Virus record (IMG/VR): IMGVR_UViG_3300042914_002678
Direction: 5' to 3' (one strand)
Length of the DNA: 64,000 bases
DNA from: a virus
Taxonomy: Duplodnaviria; Caudoviricetes
Positions within the stretch are counted from its first letter, which is position 1. Every line of letters begins with the position of its first letter. A program made the position numbers and the translations under genes. The notes beneath the pieces were generated by a model. The model did no database searches. It was given only the letters and a program-made list of their open reading frames with translations, and was not told the origin of the DNA. Below are positions 5,188-45,499 of this stretch, piece after piece.

Positions 5188-6191
5188 TGGATTTTCTTAA
5201 AGATATCGTAAAAGAAATTGGTGGTGAGTATACACAACTTGCTTCCGACATTGATGAGACTGAAACTTATGTTGACACAGGTTCGTACATTTTTAATGCA
5301 CTGGTTTCAGGTAGCATATTTGGCGGTGTATCTGGCAACAAGATTACTGCTATTGCTGGAGAGTCTAGTACTGGAAAAACTTTCTTCAGCCTCGCCGTTG
5401 TTAAGAATTTTCTTGATACCAATCCCGATGGTTATTGCCTCTACTTTGATACTGAAGCTGCTATTACCAAATCTCTCTTAGAATCCCGTGGAATTGATAC
5501 TTCTCGTCTTGTGGTTGTTAATGTGGTTACTGTTGAAGAGTTTCGTGGAACTGCGCTCAAAGCAGTAGATATGTATATGAAAAAACCAGAAGCAGAACGA
5601 AAACCCTGCATTTTTGTGCTAGACTCTTTGGGAATGCTTTCAACGAGTAAGGAGATTAATGATGCTCTGAATGATAAAGAAGTTCGGGACATGACCAAAT
5701 CACAACTGATTAAAGGTGCATTCCGTATGCTTACCTTGAAACTTGGTCAAGCGAAAATTCCAATGATTGTAACCAATCACACTTATGATGTTATCGGTGC
5801 TTATGTTCCTACTAAGGAGATGGGGGGTGGTAGTGGTCTTAAGTATGCCGCTTCTACTATCATATATCTTAGTAAGAAAAAAGAAAAAGATGGAACTGAA
5901 GTTATTGGAAACATTATTAAGGCAAAGACTGCTAAGTCGCGTTTGAGCAAAGAAAACAAAGATGTAGAAGTTCGATTATTTTATGATGAACGAGGTCTTG
6001 ATCGATATTATGGATTACTTGAACTTGGTGAAATCGCAGGAATGTGGAAAAATGTCGCTGGTCGATATGAGATCAACGGCAAGAAAATTTATGGTAAAGA
6101 AATTTTAAAGAATCCTGATCAGTATTTTACCGAAGAAGTAATGCAGCAACTTGATGCTGCCGCTAAACTACAATTTTCTTATGGGACATAA
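5187..6191 (+). CDS. uvsX: RecA-like recombinase UvsX
   Basis: Walker A GESSTGKT, YFDTE, LDSLG, MGGGSG motifs. Confidence 0.97.
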   Translation: MDFLKDIVKEIGGEYTQLASDIDETETYVDTGSYIFNALVSGSIFGGVSGNKITAIAGESSTGKTFFSLAVVKNFLDTNPDGYCLYFDTEAAITKSLLESRGIDTSRLVVVNVVTVEEFRGTALKAVDMYMKKPEAERKPCIFVLDSLGMLSTSKEINDALNDKEVRDMTKSQLIKGAFRMLTLKLGQAKIPMIVTNHTYDVIGAYVPTKEMGGGSGLKYAASTIIYLSKKKEKDGTEVIGNIIKAKTAKSRLSKENKDVEVRLFYDERGLDRYYGLLELGEIAGMWKNVAGRYEINGKKIYGKEILKNPDQYFTEEVMQQLDAAAKLQFSYGT

Positions 6192-34165: not shown

Positions 34166-34248
34166 TATAATAGAATAAAGTTGGGGAGAATTATTATCTC
34201 TCCCCTTCTTGTATACATATAGAAGTAAATTTTTTATTGGAGATTATT

Positions 34249-34437
34249 ATGTCCGTATCAGAAGAACTACTTAATGCTGTTGAAGCTTGGAAAGTAGAAG
34301 ACGAAAAGTTTGTTGGCGGAAATAACGCCGCAGGAACTCGTGCTCGCAAGGCACTTCAGGAAATTTCTAAACTTGTCAAGACACGTAGAACAGAAATTAC
34401 TGAAGAGAAAAACGCTCGTAAGGCAGTAAAGGCTTGA
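34249..34437 (+). CDS. Histone H1-like (Hc1-family) small basic protein
   Basis: GNNAAGTRARKALQEISKL motif typical of Hc1-like proteins; GGAG SD. Confidence 0.75.
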   Translation: MSVSEELLNAVEAWKVEDEKFVGGNNAAGTRARKALQEISKLVKTRRTEITEEKNARKAVKA

Positions 34438-34462
34438 CGGGTTGGGTTTAATACCCTATAAT
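34434..34462 (+). promoter_or_regulatory. Sigma70 promoter
   Basis: TTGACG-17 nt-TATAAT; the -35 overlaps the upstream stop codon. Confidence 0.8.
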
Positions 34463-34468
34463 ACTCTC

Positions 34469-34548
34469 ATGGGCAGGCGAGGTTCCAACCCTCCTTTAAG
34501 ACCCGCCCCTTCCATGCCTATCATAGAAGCACAAACAGGAAGGGTTAT
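34469..34548 (+). ncRNA. Candidate pseudoknotted small RNA
   Basis: ATGGGCA/TGCCTAT and GGCG/CGCC stems, crossed by CCTTCC/GGAAGG. Confidence 0.5.
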
Positions 34549-34620
34549 GGGACTGTCGCCTATTGGTTAAGGCCCACTGCTTATAACGGTGTGAACGGAG
34601 TTCAATTCTCCGCAGTCCTA
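34549..34620 (+). tRNA. tRNA-Ile(UAU)
   Basis: Cloverleaf; CACTG-CTTATAA-CGGTG anticodon arm; TTCAATT T-loop. Confidence 0.85.
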
Positions 34621-34649
34621 TTGACAATCTAAGTTAAATACTTTATGAT
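34621..34649 (+). promoter_or_regulatory. Sigma70 promoter
   Basis: TTGACA-17 nt-TATGAT. Confidence 0.8.
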
Positions 34650-34655
34650 TGTCTC

Positions 34656-34726
34656 GTGAGTAACAGAGGGTCTAAACCTTGTGTAATCCTCACACACCTC
34701 CTCTAAGAGAACTTATAGGAGGTCTT
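34656..34726 (+). ncRNA. Yfr1/Yfr10-like small RNA candidate
   Basis: Stem-loop, unpaired AATCCTCACAC (10/11 match to the Yfr1 motif ACTCCTCACAC), then stem-loop ACCTCCT...AGGAGGT; own promoter. Confidence 0.65.
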
Positions 34727-34728
34727 AT

Positions 34729-34803
34729 GGGCACGTAACTCAGCCTGGACAGAGTATCCGACTTCTAATCGGTTAGCCGTAGGTTCAAATCCTACCGTGC
34801 CTG
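34729..34803 (+). tRNA. tRNA-Arg(UCU)
   Basis: Cloverleaf; CCGA-CTTCTAA-TCGG anticodon arm. Confidence 0.93.
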
Positions 34804-34857
34804 TTTTGAATAAAACAACTTAAAAACATAAATAATAATGTAATATCCATTAATAAT

Positions 34858-35316
34858 ATGGAATGTGTAACCTGCGGAAAACAACATAATAATCCAAAAT
34901 TTTGTAGTAGAAGTTGTGCCGCTAAATGGACTAATGTTCAACACCCTAAAAGGAAAAAAATTAATTTTCCAAATAAATGCGAAATGTGTGGTGTAGAAAT
35001 TGATTATAGAAGTAAAAGATGTATAAAATGTTGTGGTTCTTTGGGTGATATGACATTAAAAGAAGCAATTTATGAAAAACATCACAAGTCTTCTGCTTTT
35101 GCTTTAATTAGGACAAGAGCAAGAGCAGAAGGAAAAAAACTTGGATTTACCAAATGTTGCAAATGTGGGTATGATAAACATATAGAAGTTGCCCACATTA
35201 AACCAATTTCTTCTTTTAGTGAAGAGGTTATGATAAGTATTATTAATTCCAAAGAAAACATAATGCCTTTGTGCCCAAATTGCCACTGGGAATACGACCA
35301 TAACCTTTGGACTTGA
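34858..35316 (+). mobile_element. HNH endonuclease with N-terminal zinc-ribbon motifs, inserted in the tRNA cluster
   Basis: CVTC...FCSRSC, CCKCGYD...EVAHIKP...N...LCPNCHWEYD; CATAAATA late-like promoter upstream. Confidence 0.85.
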
Positions 35317-35341
35317 CATAATCTCAGAACTAGTGTAATAT
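35313..35341 (+). promoter_or_regulatory. Sigma70 promoter
   Basis: TTGACA-17 nt-TAATAT; the -35 contains the HNH stop codon. Confidence 0.75.
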
Positions 35342-35347
35342 ATAAAC

Positions 35348-35490
35348 TGATAGAGGGTAAGTCACTGTTATATCCTTATGAGGTATATCACACTTACTCC
35401 ATCAAATGTAGGAAGTGCAACACCTCTCGCTGGTTTAGACTGGATGATGTGAAAGGTGATTCTGTCCGCACATAGAAATCCCTCCTACCA
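35348..35490 (+). ncRNA. Candidate ~140 nt structured RNA ending in CCA
   Basis: Long 5' hairpin plus a multibranch 3' domain closed by GTAGGA/TCCTAC. Confidence 0.5.
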
Positions 35491-35494
35491 TTAT

Positions 35495-35567
35495 TCCCTT
35501 ATAGCTCAATTGGCAGAGCACGGAGCTGTTAACTCTGGGGTTCCTGGTTCGAGTCCAGGTGGGGGAG
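35495..35567 (+). tRNA. tRNA-Asn(GUU)
   Basis: Cloverleaf; CGGAG-CTGTTAA-CTCTG anticodon arm. Confidence 0.93.
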
Positions 35568-35657
35568 TTGGAAGTGATCCTGCGATAACCTCAAGAGCAC
35601 TCCTTCCAACTAAAACCTAGAATATTTCTAGGTCAGGGGGATGGCCTCCCCTGTTTC

Positions 35658-35729
35658 GCCCTTGTAGCTCAGTGGTAGAGCAACGGTTTTGTAAACCGTT
35701 GGTCGCTGGTTCAAATCCAGTCGGGGGCT
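35658..35729 (+). tRNA. tRNA-Thr(UGU)
   Basis: Cloverleaf; ACGGT-TTTGTAA-ACCGT anticodon arm. Confidence 0.95.
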
Positions 35730-35757
35730 TGACATAATACTCATTATGTCTTATACT
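35729..35757 (+). promoter_or_regulatory. Sigma70 promoter containing a perfect 8-bp inverted repeat
   Basis: TTGACA-17 nt-TATACT; GACATAAT-actc-ATTATGTC. Confidence 0.75.
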
Positions 35758-35763
35758 TTTCCT

Positions 35764-35807
35764 ATCCGTGTGAAGGAAATGTGCTGGGAGAGAAATCTCC
35801 CACTTTT
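35764..35807 (+). ncRNA. Candidate ~45 nt RNA with a segment near-complementary to the Yfr1 motif
   Basis: GTGTGAAGGA followed by a GGGAGA-GAAA-TCTCCC hairpin and TTTT. Confidence 0.4.
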
Positions 35808-35878
35808 GCGAATGTGGTGTAGCGGTAACATCCCATCCTTCCAAGTTGGTGTCACGGGTTCGATCCCCGTCATTCGCT
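35808..35878 (+). tRNA. tRNA-Gly(UCC)
   Basis: Cloverleaf; CCATC-CTTCCAA-GTTGG anticodon arm, U73. Confidence 0.93.
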
Positions 35879-35903
35879 TATAAACCGTAAAAACCGAAAA
35901 GGC

Positions 35904-35938
35904 TTGACTGATCCCAAAGGAACTGTTAAGATAAATAC
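35904..35938 (+). promoter_or_regulatory. Porin promoter: sigma70 type with overlapping late-like element
   Basis: TTGACT-17 nt-TAAGAT overlapping ATAAATA. Confidence 0.7.
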
Positions 35939-36008
35939 CGTGAAGTGATAGTGCCTCAACTACTCGCATAGTCACACATTATGTCCTATAGAACAAAAAC
36001 AAATTTTT

Positions 36009-37502
36009 ATGAAACTCAAACAACTGATGCTTGCACCTGTTGCTCTGGGAATGGTTGCTCCTGTTGCTGCGAATGCCGCAGACCTTAACATGGCAGCAGT
36101 CAACCAATACTCCACTGAGCAGGTTACAAGCGTTTCGCAACTTTCTGATGTGCAACCCACTGACTGGGCATATCAGGCACTCAGCAATCTTGTAGAGCGT
36201 TATGGTTGTGTTGCTGGTTATGCAAACGGCACCTTTGGTGGTGGTAAAGCAATGACCCGTTATGAAGCAGCAGCACTTCTGAATGCTTGCCTTGACCGTG
36301 TAACCGAAGTTACTGATGAACTCGGTCGTCTTGCAAATGAGTTCCGTGATGAACTGACTGTAATTCAAGGTAAAGTTGCAAGTCTGGAAACCAAAGTTGG
36401 TGCTCTGGAAGCAACTCAATTCTCTACCACAACTAAACTGAAAGGTGAAGCATCTTTCGTTCTTGGTGGTGTTGATAATGCTTGGGTTCCTGGTAAGGAT
36501 TCCAGTACCAATGTAGGCAATACTGCCTTCAACTACGATCTTCGTATCAATCTTGATACTTCTTTCACTGGAAAGGATCTTCTTCGTACTCGTCTTCGTT
36601 CTGGTAACTTCTCCAGTCAACCTTTTGGTTCCAGTTCTTCACTCTTTAAACTGGACAAAGCAGAAGGCACTTCTGATTCTGTAAAGATTGACCGTCTGTA
36701 CTACAGCTTCCCTGCTCTTGCTAAGGGTGTAACTCTGACTGCTGGTGCTCTGGTTCGTAATACTGAGATGACCTGGATTCCTTCTGCTTATAAGTCGGAT
36801 GTTCTGGACTTCTTCCAACTTGCTGGTGCTCCTGGTGTCTATAACAAGGCAACTGGTGCTGGTTTCGGTGCTCAGTGGTCACAAGGTAAGAAAGGTTTCG
36901 TTGCTGGTCTGAACTATGTTGCTCAGAGTGGTGCTGATTCTACCAAAGGTGAGTTTAATGAAAAGGGTGCTCTGAACACTCTTGCTCAGATTGGTTATCG
37001 TACTCCTCAGTGGGGTGCTGCTTTCGGTTATCGTTACGGTACTGAAGGCACCCGTGTTCGCACCTTTAATGGTGTTCTGGGTAGTTCTGGTGCTCTTGCT
37101 CCTGGACAAACCTCTAATGGTTATGCTCTGAGTGCTTACTGGCAACCTAAGAAGTCTGGTATTATTCCTTCTGTGAGTGGTGGATATGGTTGGAACACCG
37201 TAAGCTTGAATGCTGAAGGTGCAGCAACTCCTACTGGTGCTACCGATTCTCAAACTTGGTATGCTGGTCTTCAGTGGTCTGATGTATTCGCCAAGGGTAA
37301 TTCTGCTGGTTTCGCTATCGGTCAACCTGGAAATGCAGAAGGTCTTGAAAAGGATGCAACAATGTGGGAACTGTTCTATAAGTATCGTGTAAGCGATAAT
37401 ATTACTGTTACTCCTGCTGTGTTCTATGTGTCTAACAATCAAGCACTTGCAGATACTTCTTCCAACTATGGTGGTGTAATTCAGACGACTTTCCGTTTCT
37501 GA
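36009..37502 (+). CDS. Cyanobacterial SLH-domain porin (Som/OprB family)
   Basis: Signal peptide, SQLSDVQPTDWAYQALSNLVERYGCVAGY SLH motif, coiled coil, FSTTTKLKGE, beta-barrel, C-terminal TTFRF. Confidence 0.95.
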   Translation: MKLKQLMLAPVALGMVAPVAANAADLNMAAVNQYSTEQVTSVSQLSDVQPTDWAYQALSNLVERYGCVAGYANGTFGGGKAMTRYEAAALLNACLDRVTEVTDELGRLANEFRDELTVIQGKVASLETKVGALEATQFSTTTKLKGEASFVLGGVDNAWVPGKDSSTNVGNTAFNYDLRINLDTSFTGKDLLRTRLRSGNFSSQPFGSSSSLFKLDKAEGTSDSVKIDRLYYSFPALAKGVTLTAGALVRNTEMTWIPSAYKSDVLDFFQLAGAPGVYNKATGAGFGAQWSQGKKGFVAGLNYVAQSGADSTKGEFNEKGALNTLAQIGYRTPQWGAAFGYRYGTEGTRVRTFNGVLGSSGALAPGQTSNGYALSAYWQPKKSGIIPSVSGGYGWNTVSLNAEGAATPTGATDSQTWYAGLQWSDVFAKGNSAGFAIGQPGNAEGLEKDATMWELFYKYRVSDNITVTPAVFYVSNNQALADTSSNYGGVIQTTFRF

Positions 37503-37523: not shown

Positions 37524-37559
37524 TGGGGGGTTGACAAAACCCCCTTTTTAGTGTATTAT
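37524..37559 (+). terminator. Terminator hairpin with embedded sigma70 -35
   Basis: GGGGG-TTGACAAAA-CCCCC plus T run; TTGACA-17 nt-TATTAT. Confidence 0.8.
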
Positions 37560-44979: not shown

Positions 44980-45414
44980 ATGGCGACAAGAGAACAAAAG
45001 TTAGAAGCGAAAAGACGCTACTATCAAAAGCATAAAAACAGATTAAATGAGGAATCAAGAGAACTCAATACCAGATTGAGATATGAAAAGAAAAACTTTA
45101 TCATAGAAAATCTTGGATCCAAGTGTTGTAAGTGTGGAACTACTGATTGTCTAGAAATAGATCACATCAATCCTGGACTTAAAAAAGATCAAAGATGTCT
45201 TTATGTTTGTTCTTGGGATAGGATAAAAAGTGAAATGGATAATCTCCAACTTCTCTGTAGTTCCTGCCACCAAGAAAGATCTCAGTTGCAAAAAGATGCT
45301 TCATGGTTTTATTTTAAAAATCTTTCTTTAGAAGAACAAAATAATCTAATGGAGAAATTTAAAAGAGAAGGTTCTACTTTACCTTCTTGGTGCCCGCAAG
45401 ATAAGGCACAATAA
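44980..45414 (+). mobile_element. HNH endonuclease
   Basis: CCKCG...LEIDHINP...NLQLLCSSCH; TATAAATA at 44951. Confidence 0.85.
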
Positions 45415-45423
45415 AAATTCTTG

Positions 45424-45494
45424 CTGGTGCGGATGGGGAATTCTTTCTCCGCCTGGTTTCTAATTTCCAGTCAAAGAATTGGTGGCGAGCCTGA
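45424..45494 (+). ncRNA. wcaG RNA motif
   Basis: Two UGGYG elements (TGGTG, TGGCG) flanking GCGGA/TCCGC and CTGG/CCAG stems; upstream of gmd and wcaG as described for this motif. Confidence 0.8.
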
Positions 45495-45499
45495 GTTAT

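Follow-up and report, generated by a model that had tools for sequence, protein, structure and literature searches.

Does a cyanophage silence the porins of its host with a small RNA while making a porin of its own that lacks the target site? This question is raised by positions 34,621 to 37,502 of a 64,000-nucleotide stretch (hereafter the window) of IMGVR_UViG_3300042914_002678, a 98.6-kb IMG/VR viral contig estimated to be 51% complete, in which an earlier note had seen a linked 'porin swap' system made up of a Yfr1-like RNA (RNA 1), a nearly complementary partner RNA (RNA 2) and a phage porin. The source is an uncultured freshwater T4-like cyanophage near Synechococcus phage S-SRM01 (Kyanoviridae, freshwater), its closest cultured relative. 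We consider it probable that what lies in these 2.9 kb is not a linked system but three ordinary and separate parts of such a phage. Positions 34621-34728 would comprise an early sigma-70-type promoter followed by the structured 5' leader of tRNA-Arg(UCU), a diverged copy of a leader family, here called family A, that precedes many phage tRNA genes, and RNase P, cutting at the tRNA 5' end, would free a leader of ~73 nt; 35729-35807 would be the promoter and conserved leader of tRNA-Gly; and the porin would be a conserved phage gene, acquired once from picocyanobacterial Som-type porins and read from its own promoter. The features concerned are the following.

34621..34649, plus strand: sigma-70-type promoter adjoining the tRNA-Ile 3' end (TTGACA-17-TATGAT, 11/12 matches)
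34654..34728, plus strand: RNA 1 ('Yfr1-like'), diverged family-A leader of tRNA-Arg (match to covariance model R1, alignment; Rfam Yfr1 16.9 bits)
34685..34695, plus strand: Yfr1-like motif AATCCTCACAC in RNA 1 (10/11 identical to the Yfr1 motif)
34728..34804 (start 34728/9), plus strand: tRNA-Arg, anticodon tct (tRNA prediction)
35729..35757, plus strand: sigma-70-type promoter adjoining tRNA-Thr (TTGACA-17-TATACT, 11/12 matches; relatives share the layout)
35758..35807, plus strand: RNA 2, conserved tRNA-Gly leader, family B (single-stranded GUGUGAAG core, covarying hairpin)
35808..35878, plus strand: tRNA-Gly, anticodon tcc
35904..36008, plus strand: porin promoter and ~70-nt A/U-rich 5' untranslated region, with neither a Shine-Dalgarno sequence nor a Yfr1 site
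36009..37502, plus strand: phage porin with signal peptide, SLH domain and OprB barrel (Pfam)

RNA 1 and RNA 2 as tRNA leaders

All promoter-leader-tRNA units in 80 porin-encoding viral loci (individual loci carry L numbers below), in S-SRM01 and in the window were compared. Recurrent leader families emerged from these units, and the arrangement itself is present in every relative inspected. RNA 1 could be aligned with family A, which in relatives usually supplies the tRNA-Arg(UCU) leader and to which the window's first leader (34467-34548, before tRNA-Ile) likewise belongs. A covariance model (R1), built from 10 relatives that had been found via the porin gene and not via RNA 1, with the window excluded, matched 34654-34728 over the full model length (positions 1-82) at 33.1 bits (E 2e-7) and the tRNA-Ile leader at 34467-34549 at 76.9 bits (E 1e-19), the best chance match in the 64 kb being 12.7 bits. 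A profile search on sequence only (nhmmer) also recovered RNA 1, at E 1.6e-5. The homology is visible by profile and covariance model only, blastn at word size 7 giving no match of 34621-34728 to the 80 loci. Since RNA 1 is a homologue of family-A leaders, there is no conserved porin-swap system; its motif occurs in 0/80 porin loci, and the linked system proposed in the earlier note finds no support.

The family-A fold consists of a short outer stem around an inner hairpin, followed by a second hairpin. In the alignment 97.3% of cells are paired and 9 of the 15 pairs show compensatory changes, a level reached by 0/500 shuffles; two outer-stem pairs alternate between AU (14) and GC (12) and between GC (21) and AU (8). 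The outer stem reads GUGAG/CUCAC in RNA 1 and GGCAG/CUGCC or UGAG/CUCG in relatives. Both the minimum-energy fold of RNA 1 and the family fold pair CUCAC (34689-34693) with the 5' GUGAG (34656-34660), and the CUCAC of the motif AAUCCUCACAC is the 3' strand of the stem kept by compensatory changes. Compared with the nearest relative, L225, both strands have changed together (U·G to U-A and A·C to G-C). Because the family fold covaries and the strands changed in step, we take the motif to be the form that a variable stem strand and its junction have in RNA 1; RNA 1 looks like Yfr1 because this 3' strand happens to spell UCCUCACAC. The hairpin-motif-hairpin layout described earlier is thus present as regards the motif and the hairpins, but the motif is not unpaired. 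Beyond the stem, RNA 1 has kept the family's 5' domain, whose strong conservation includes covariation and a loop that does not vary, and has a plain 7-bp hairpin in place of the abiF-like hairpin described below. The 5' domain alone stands directly before a tRNA in L218 and L238. As a side observation, family-A leaders have a group I intron (Rfam RF00028, 58-60 bits) beside them in L217 (intron at 735-928) and L224 (intron at 5772-5966).

RNA 2 carries GTGTGAAGGA at 35768-35777 and has homologues in 39 of the 80 loci and in S-SRM01, all without RNA 1. Its core is GTGTGAAGGA in about half of them and GTGTGAAGTGAAG in the rest, about half lacking GGA, and its hairpin covaries (e.g. GGGAGA/UCUCCC and GGAGGA/UCCUCC). 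Both RNAs run straight into tRNA genes (at 34728/9 and 35808), which makes them 5' leaders of tRNAs rather than small RNA genes that stand alone with a terminator. What the earlier note had called two discrete small RNAs therefore holds for the motifs, for both promoters (11/12 matches each) and for the folding (z -3.6 against shuffles for RNA 1 and -2.7 for RNA 2), but not for their standing as separate genes. The start of the porin mRNA, CCGUGAAGUGAUAGUGCC (35939-35960), resembles that of relatives' tRNA-Gly leaders, CCGUGUGAAGUGAAGUGC (window 35766-35785); a common 5' element or an origin by duplication is possible for these two adjacent transcription units.

The phage porin and the Yfr1 target site

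The porin open reading frame (36009-37502) is intact, as had been claimed, and carries both an SLH domain (Pfam, 1.6e-7) and an OprB domain (1.7e-9); the N-terminal signal peptide ends in AANA and the protein ends in FRF, with an aromatic final residue. Also in agreement with the first reading of this DNA, neither GTGTGAGGA nor a Shine-Dalgarno sequence was found in the leader. Wider comparison made this point stronger than first stated. Host-family porin genes with a clear start carry GTGTGAGG(A) at -14 to -6 of the ATG in 17/17 cases, and GUGUGAGG(A) stands at the ribosome-binding site of 17/17 host-family genes vs 0/77 phage porins, the host site being absent within 60 nt of the start in all 77. 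These 77 phage genes share instead an A/U-rich stretch before the ATG, without a Shine-Dalgarno sequence. Given a leader with neither a Yfr1 site nor a Shine-Dalgarno sequence, pairing with host Yfr1 is not predicted, and it is reasonable to infer from these leaders that the phage porin mRNA is unable to pair with host Yfr1.

Porin relatives are encoded in 404 viral contigs. In a maximum-likelihood tree, rooted at the midpoint only, 28 phage porins form one clade with 100/100 support on a long branch beside picocyanobacterial porins, and identity between the phage porin and host-family porins reaches 61%. Two metatranscriptome runs contain contigs related to the porin frame, which is not proof of transcription. 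The viral contig IMGVR_UViG_3300044631_000905 (87.6 kb) bears two porin genes (L060 and L081) about 15 kb apart. Phage-type porins (64-74% identity) also occur in L085 (CALGUV010000018.1, a Microbacteriaceae metagenome-assembled genome, MAG) and L086 (RGYP01000505.1, a Gammaproteobacteria MAG), both of which are probably misbinned phage DNA.

RNA 1 compared with Yfr1

The least unlikely of the alternatives is a lineage-specific Yfr1 mimic, in which the duplicated leader, freed from the tRNA-Arg precursor, would pair UCCUCACAC with GUGUGAGGA and block translation of host porins while the site-free phage porin is made. Several observations favour it or weigh against our explanation. The 9-mer UCCUCACAC is a perfect complement (9/9) of GUGUGAGGA at all host porin ribosome-binding sites examined (17/17), a site that the phage porins lack (0/77). 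Under a first-order Markov model of 153 related leaders, only 0.06 such 9-mers would be expected in all of them, so that pure chance is not comfortable within this data set. We infer both the transcription start and the RNase P processing of the leaders, and a start at 34658 would leave a stem of only 3 bp, with an opening cost of 2.0 kcal/mol. In addition, Yfr1 is the top Rfam family when the 91-nt stretch is searched alone, with the 3' hairpin left unaligned, and PMC6596454, citing Richter et al. 2010, reports Yfr1 as a regulator of porins in Prochlorococcus MED4.

The score of RNA 1 against the Rfam Yfr1 model (RF01116, gathering cut-off 38 bits) is 16.9 bits (E 0.036 per contig), far under the cut-off, whereas the same model gives 65 bits in two host-like genomes, the Synechococcus sp. 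UW140 MAG and the Cyanobium sp. NIES-981 MAG. We scanned 40 records with it (~3.7 Mb: the phage's own contig, 38 related viral contigs, four of them estimated 100% complete, and S-SRM01), and at E up to 1 the own contig gave the only match (0/39 related records); at that threshold the model also matches in E. coli, Thermus and Lactococcus controls. The motif AATCCTCACAC is 10/11 identical to the Yfr1 motif ACUCCUCACAC and is present in a single copy in the 98.6-kb contig, but 5 of the 9 bases of UCCUCACAC lie in the stem, of which the 5' strand has changed in step (A to G and G to A relative to L225), and opening the 9-mer costs 6.0 kcal/mol in RNA 1 vs 0.01 in host Yfr1. RNA 1 is also devoid of a U-tract terminator, with CUUAU as the only sequence between its 3' hairpin and tRNA-Arg.

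Absence of the motif from relatives had been named beforehand as counting against a mimic, and it is absent from all relatives examined, namely the 80 porin loci, the 39 related phage records and S-SRM01 outside coding sequence (S-SRM01 carries one copy of the 9-mer, inside a gene). No relative with a closer RNA 1 homologue was found in the loci, the related records or pattern scans: the exact pattern GTAATCCTCACACACCTCC had 0 matches in viral contigs, TCCTCACAC(N)CCTCC gave only unrelated, mostly coding matches there, and CCTTGTGTAATCCTCACAC gave one unrelated match in metagenome contigs. Hundreds of porin-carrying phages thus manage without the RNA 1 motif. As to chance, simple arithmetic gives an expectation of about 0.75 for a random 9-mer in a 98.6-kb contig, and the stem strand of relatives is already near the motif (AUCCCACAC in L032 and CUCUCACC in L217). 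The recognition could moreover have fallen on any of several known motifs. It is on account of the compensatory stem changes, the lack of a terminator and the want of a second instance, taken with the chance estimates, that we regard the mimic as unlikely, and the earlier claim of one, for an RNA that falls short of the Yfr1 model, is homologous to a tRNA-leader family and bears a motif absent from relatives, is not upheld.

Whole-molecule duplex energies between RNA 1 and porin leaders were uninformative, since they ignore internal structure. A look-up of RNA data sets with 34630-34760 gave none, and contigs from two metatranscriptome runs included none on 34633-34743; neither result has a bearing on expression. 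Our literature search found no paper linking Yfr1 or a porin to cyanophage genomes.

The abiF motif in canonical leaders

The abiF RNA (Rfam RF03085, cut-off 37 bits) is an RNA antitoxin that binds and neutralises AbiF (Abi_2) HEPN RNases (bioRxiv 10.1101/2025.04.15.648962; PMC12737573). Of 16 related loci, at least 10 have canonical family-A leaders with a second hairpin that scores 49-56 bits against the abiF model; RNA 1 gave no match. Abi_2 genes above the cut-off occur in 15 of 301 host-family genomes, and no such gene was found in the phage's own contig, S-SRM01 or one complete relative. Upstream of host-family Abi_2 genes, abiF matches are present in 3 of the 10 loci fetched (33.1-33.6 bits, below the 37-bit cut-off), and R1 gave weak matches at the same place in six loci (E 0.01-0.25). 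These upstream hairpins share the hairpin and 3' tail with family A, without the 5' domain. Given abiF-like hairpins both in the leaders and upstream of host Abi_2 genes, a role of canonical family-A leaders as decoys for host AbiF is plausible, and we put it forward tentatively, as a possibility that falls somewhat short of an even chance. Counting against it, the window's own hairpin (34508-34544) scores 35.9 bits, just under the cut-off. The abiF RNA was above cut-off in 0 of 121 host-family genomes, a weak test with 50 candidates scored per genome.

A second alternative for RNA 1, improbable and ranked behind the mimic, is that this diverged leader still acts in trans by way of the conserved 5' domain, e.g. 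by binding a host defence or RNA-processing protein. It would account for the strong conservation, covariation and invariant loop of that domain and for its persistence alone before a tRNA in two loci, and in topology, with its outer stem, inner hairpin and 3' bulge of 6 nt, the domain is similar to the abiF motif. Yet at E up to 10 the abiF model does not match the domain, which is also missing ahead of host Abi_2 genes, and the domain may simply help the processing or stability of the tRNA precursor.

Finally, that RNA 2 is a Yfr2-like sponge for Yfr1-type RNAs, be it host Yfr1 or RNA 1, is very improbable: GUGUGA-A-GGA in its 5' region, predicted to be single-stranded, could pair with UCCUCACAC over 6+3 bp with one bulge, but about half of its relatives read GUGUGAAGUGAAG and could form only 6 bp, RNA 2 is kept in phages without RNA 1, the pairing of the two RNAs is no better than that of shuffles (20% as good), and 35750-35812 matched neither Yfr2 nor any other relevant Rfam family at E up to 10. 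The part of partner RNA given to it earlier, for an RNA conserved without RNA 1 and variable in its GGA, accordingly finds no support.

The tRNA cluster and its surroundings

We return to the phage as a carrier of separate leader cassettes and a porin gene. The tRNA cluster (34434-36008; Ile-tat, Arg-tct, Asn, Thr and Gly) alternates near-consensus sigma-70-type promoters with tRNAs, each promoter beginning at or beside the 3' end of the previous tRNA. The remaining features are these.

34434..34462, plus strand: sigma-70-type promoter of the first leader-tRNA unit (TTGACG-17-TATAAT, 11/12 matches)
34467..34548, plus strand: canonical family-A leader of tRNA-Ile, with the abiF-motif-like second hairpin at 34508-34544 (model R1; Rfam abiF)
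34548..34621, plus strand: tRNA-Ile, anticodon tat (ARAGORN and Rfam)
34858..35316, plus strand: HNH endonuclease open reading frame within the tRNA cluster (Pfam HNH_2, E 8e-9)
35313..35493, plus strand: promoter and family-C structured leader of tRNA-Asn (promoter scan, comparison of relatives)
35494..35568, plus strand: tRNA-Asn, anticodon gtt
35658..35729, plus strand: tRNA-Thr, anticodon tgt
37525..37545, plus strand: terminator-like hairpin with a T-run, 3' of the porin gene

Family C, a third leader family (the window and L028, L031, L041, L049 and L055), has a conserved hairpin of ~60 nt that begins at the promoter and precedes tRNA-Asn, Met, His or Ala, depending on the phage, and in L005, L048 and others tRNA-Arg follows a leader of a fourth family. 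The leader cassettes look modular and exchangeable. The HNH frame, which follows tRNA-Arg and precedes the next leader, has counterparts in just 4 of the 80 related loci and is therefore probably a mobile homing endonuclease.

Upstream of the cluster are a tail-lysozyme gene and an Hc1 histone H1-like gene (Pfam PF07432, E 1e-14), the latter at 34237-34437, just 5' of the cluster, as it is in S-SRM01. At Rfam gathering thresholds the whole window matches only tRNAs and a wcaG RNA (RF01761, 73.4 bits, 45388-45496), a motif otherwise known from marine cyanophages and metagenomes, which is present in this freshwater phage and also in L224, L240 and L241. DNA contigs from two other lake studies are identical over 34567-35394 or 34641-34886, which points to a widespread same strain and only to that.

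Significance

The attractive claim of a phage-encoded Yfr1 is removed as unsupported, and the locus becomes an example of how such a look-alike arises, from the variable strand of a conserved stem. If the mimic were true after all, one lineage would shut off host porin translation via GUGUGAGGA while making its own site-free porin. What the data do bring out is a large freshwater cyanophage clade with a porin that has shed the Yfr1 site of all 17 host-family genes examined, and the role of a phage-made outer-membrane porin is now directly testable. The tRNA genes of these phages are driven from modular promoter-leader cassettes, of which the canonical version bears the AbiF antitoxin RNA motif, and this would fit the idea of phage tRNA clusters doubling as anti-defence loci.

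Comparison with known systems

With Yfr1, RNA 1 shares the order of hairpin, near-match to ACUCCUCACAC and hairpin, as well as the complementarity of its 9-mer to host porin ribosome-binding sites; it differs in that its motif is half buried in a conserved stem, in being a phage leader homologue fused to a tRNA gene, in lacking a U-tract terminator, in its score (16.9 bits vs 38) and in not being kept in relatives. The Som porins (SLH plus OprB, e.g. PMM1119 and PMM1121) have the same domain architecture as the phage porin, and the phage clade is nested among them, but the phage copies form one long-branched clade, all without GUGUGAGGA at the ribosome-binding site.

The second hairpin of the phage leaders resembles the abiF RNA (AbiFr, RCd22), and the hairpin upstream of host-family Abi_2 is similar to it down to the GGUC.CU tail; the phage hairpin, in contrast, sits in tRNA leaders behind a phage-specific 5' domain, with no Abi_2 gene among the phage records scanned, and RNA 1 has lost it. 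Pseudo-ToxI, encoded by phage phiTE, mimics a type III antitoxin RNA. It offers a working model for the abiF-bearing leaders, as a phage RNA that would neutralise a host abortive-infection RNase, although the toxin family is a different one and the cyanophage leaders are known here from their sequence. Small stable RNAs of unclear function (species 1 and 2, rnaC, rnaD) are encoded in the tRNA cluster of phage T4. These are likewise structured non-tRNA RNAs co-transcribed with phage tRNAs and freed by tRNA processing, and the cyanophage cassettes differ from them in that each leader has a consensus promoter of its own.

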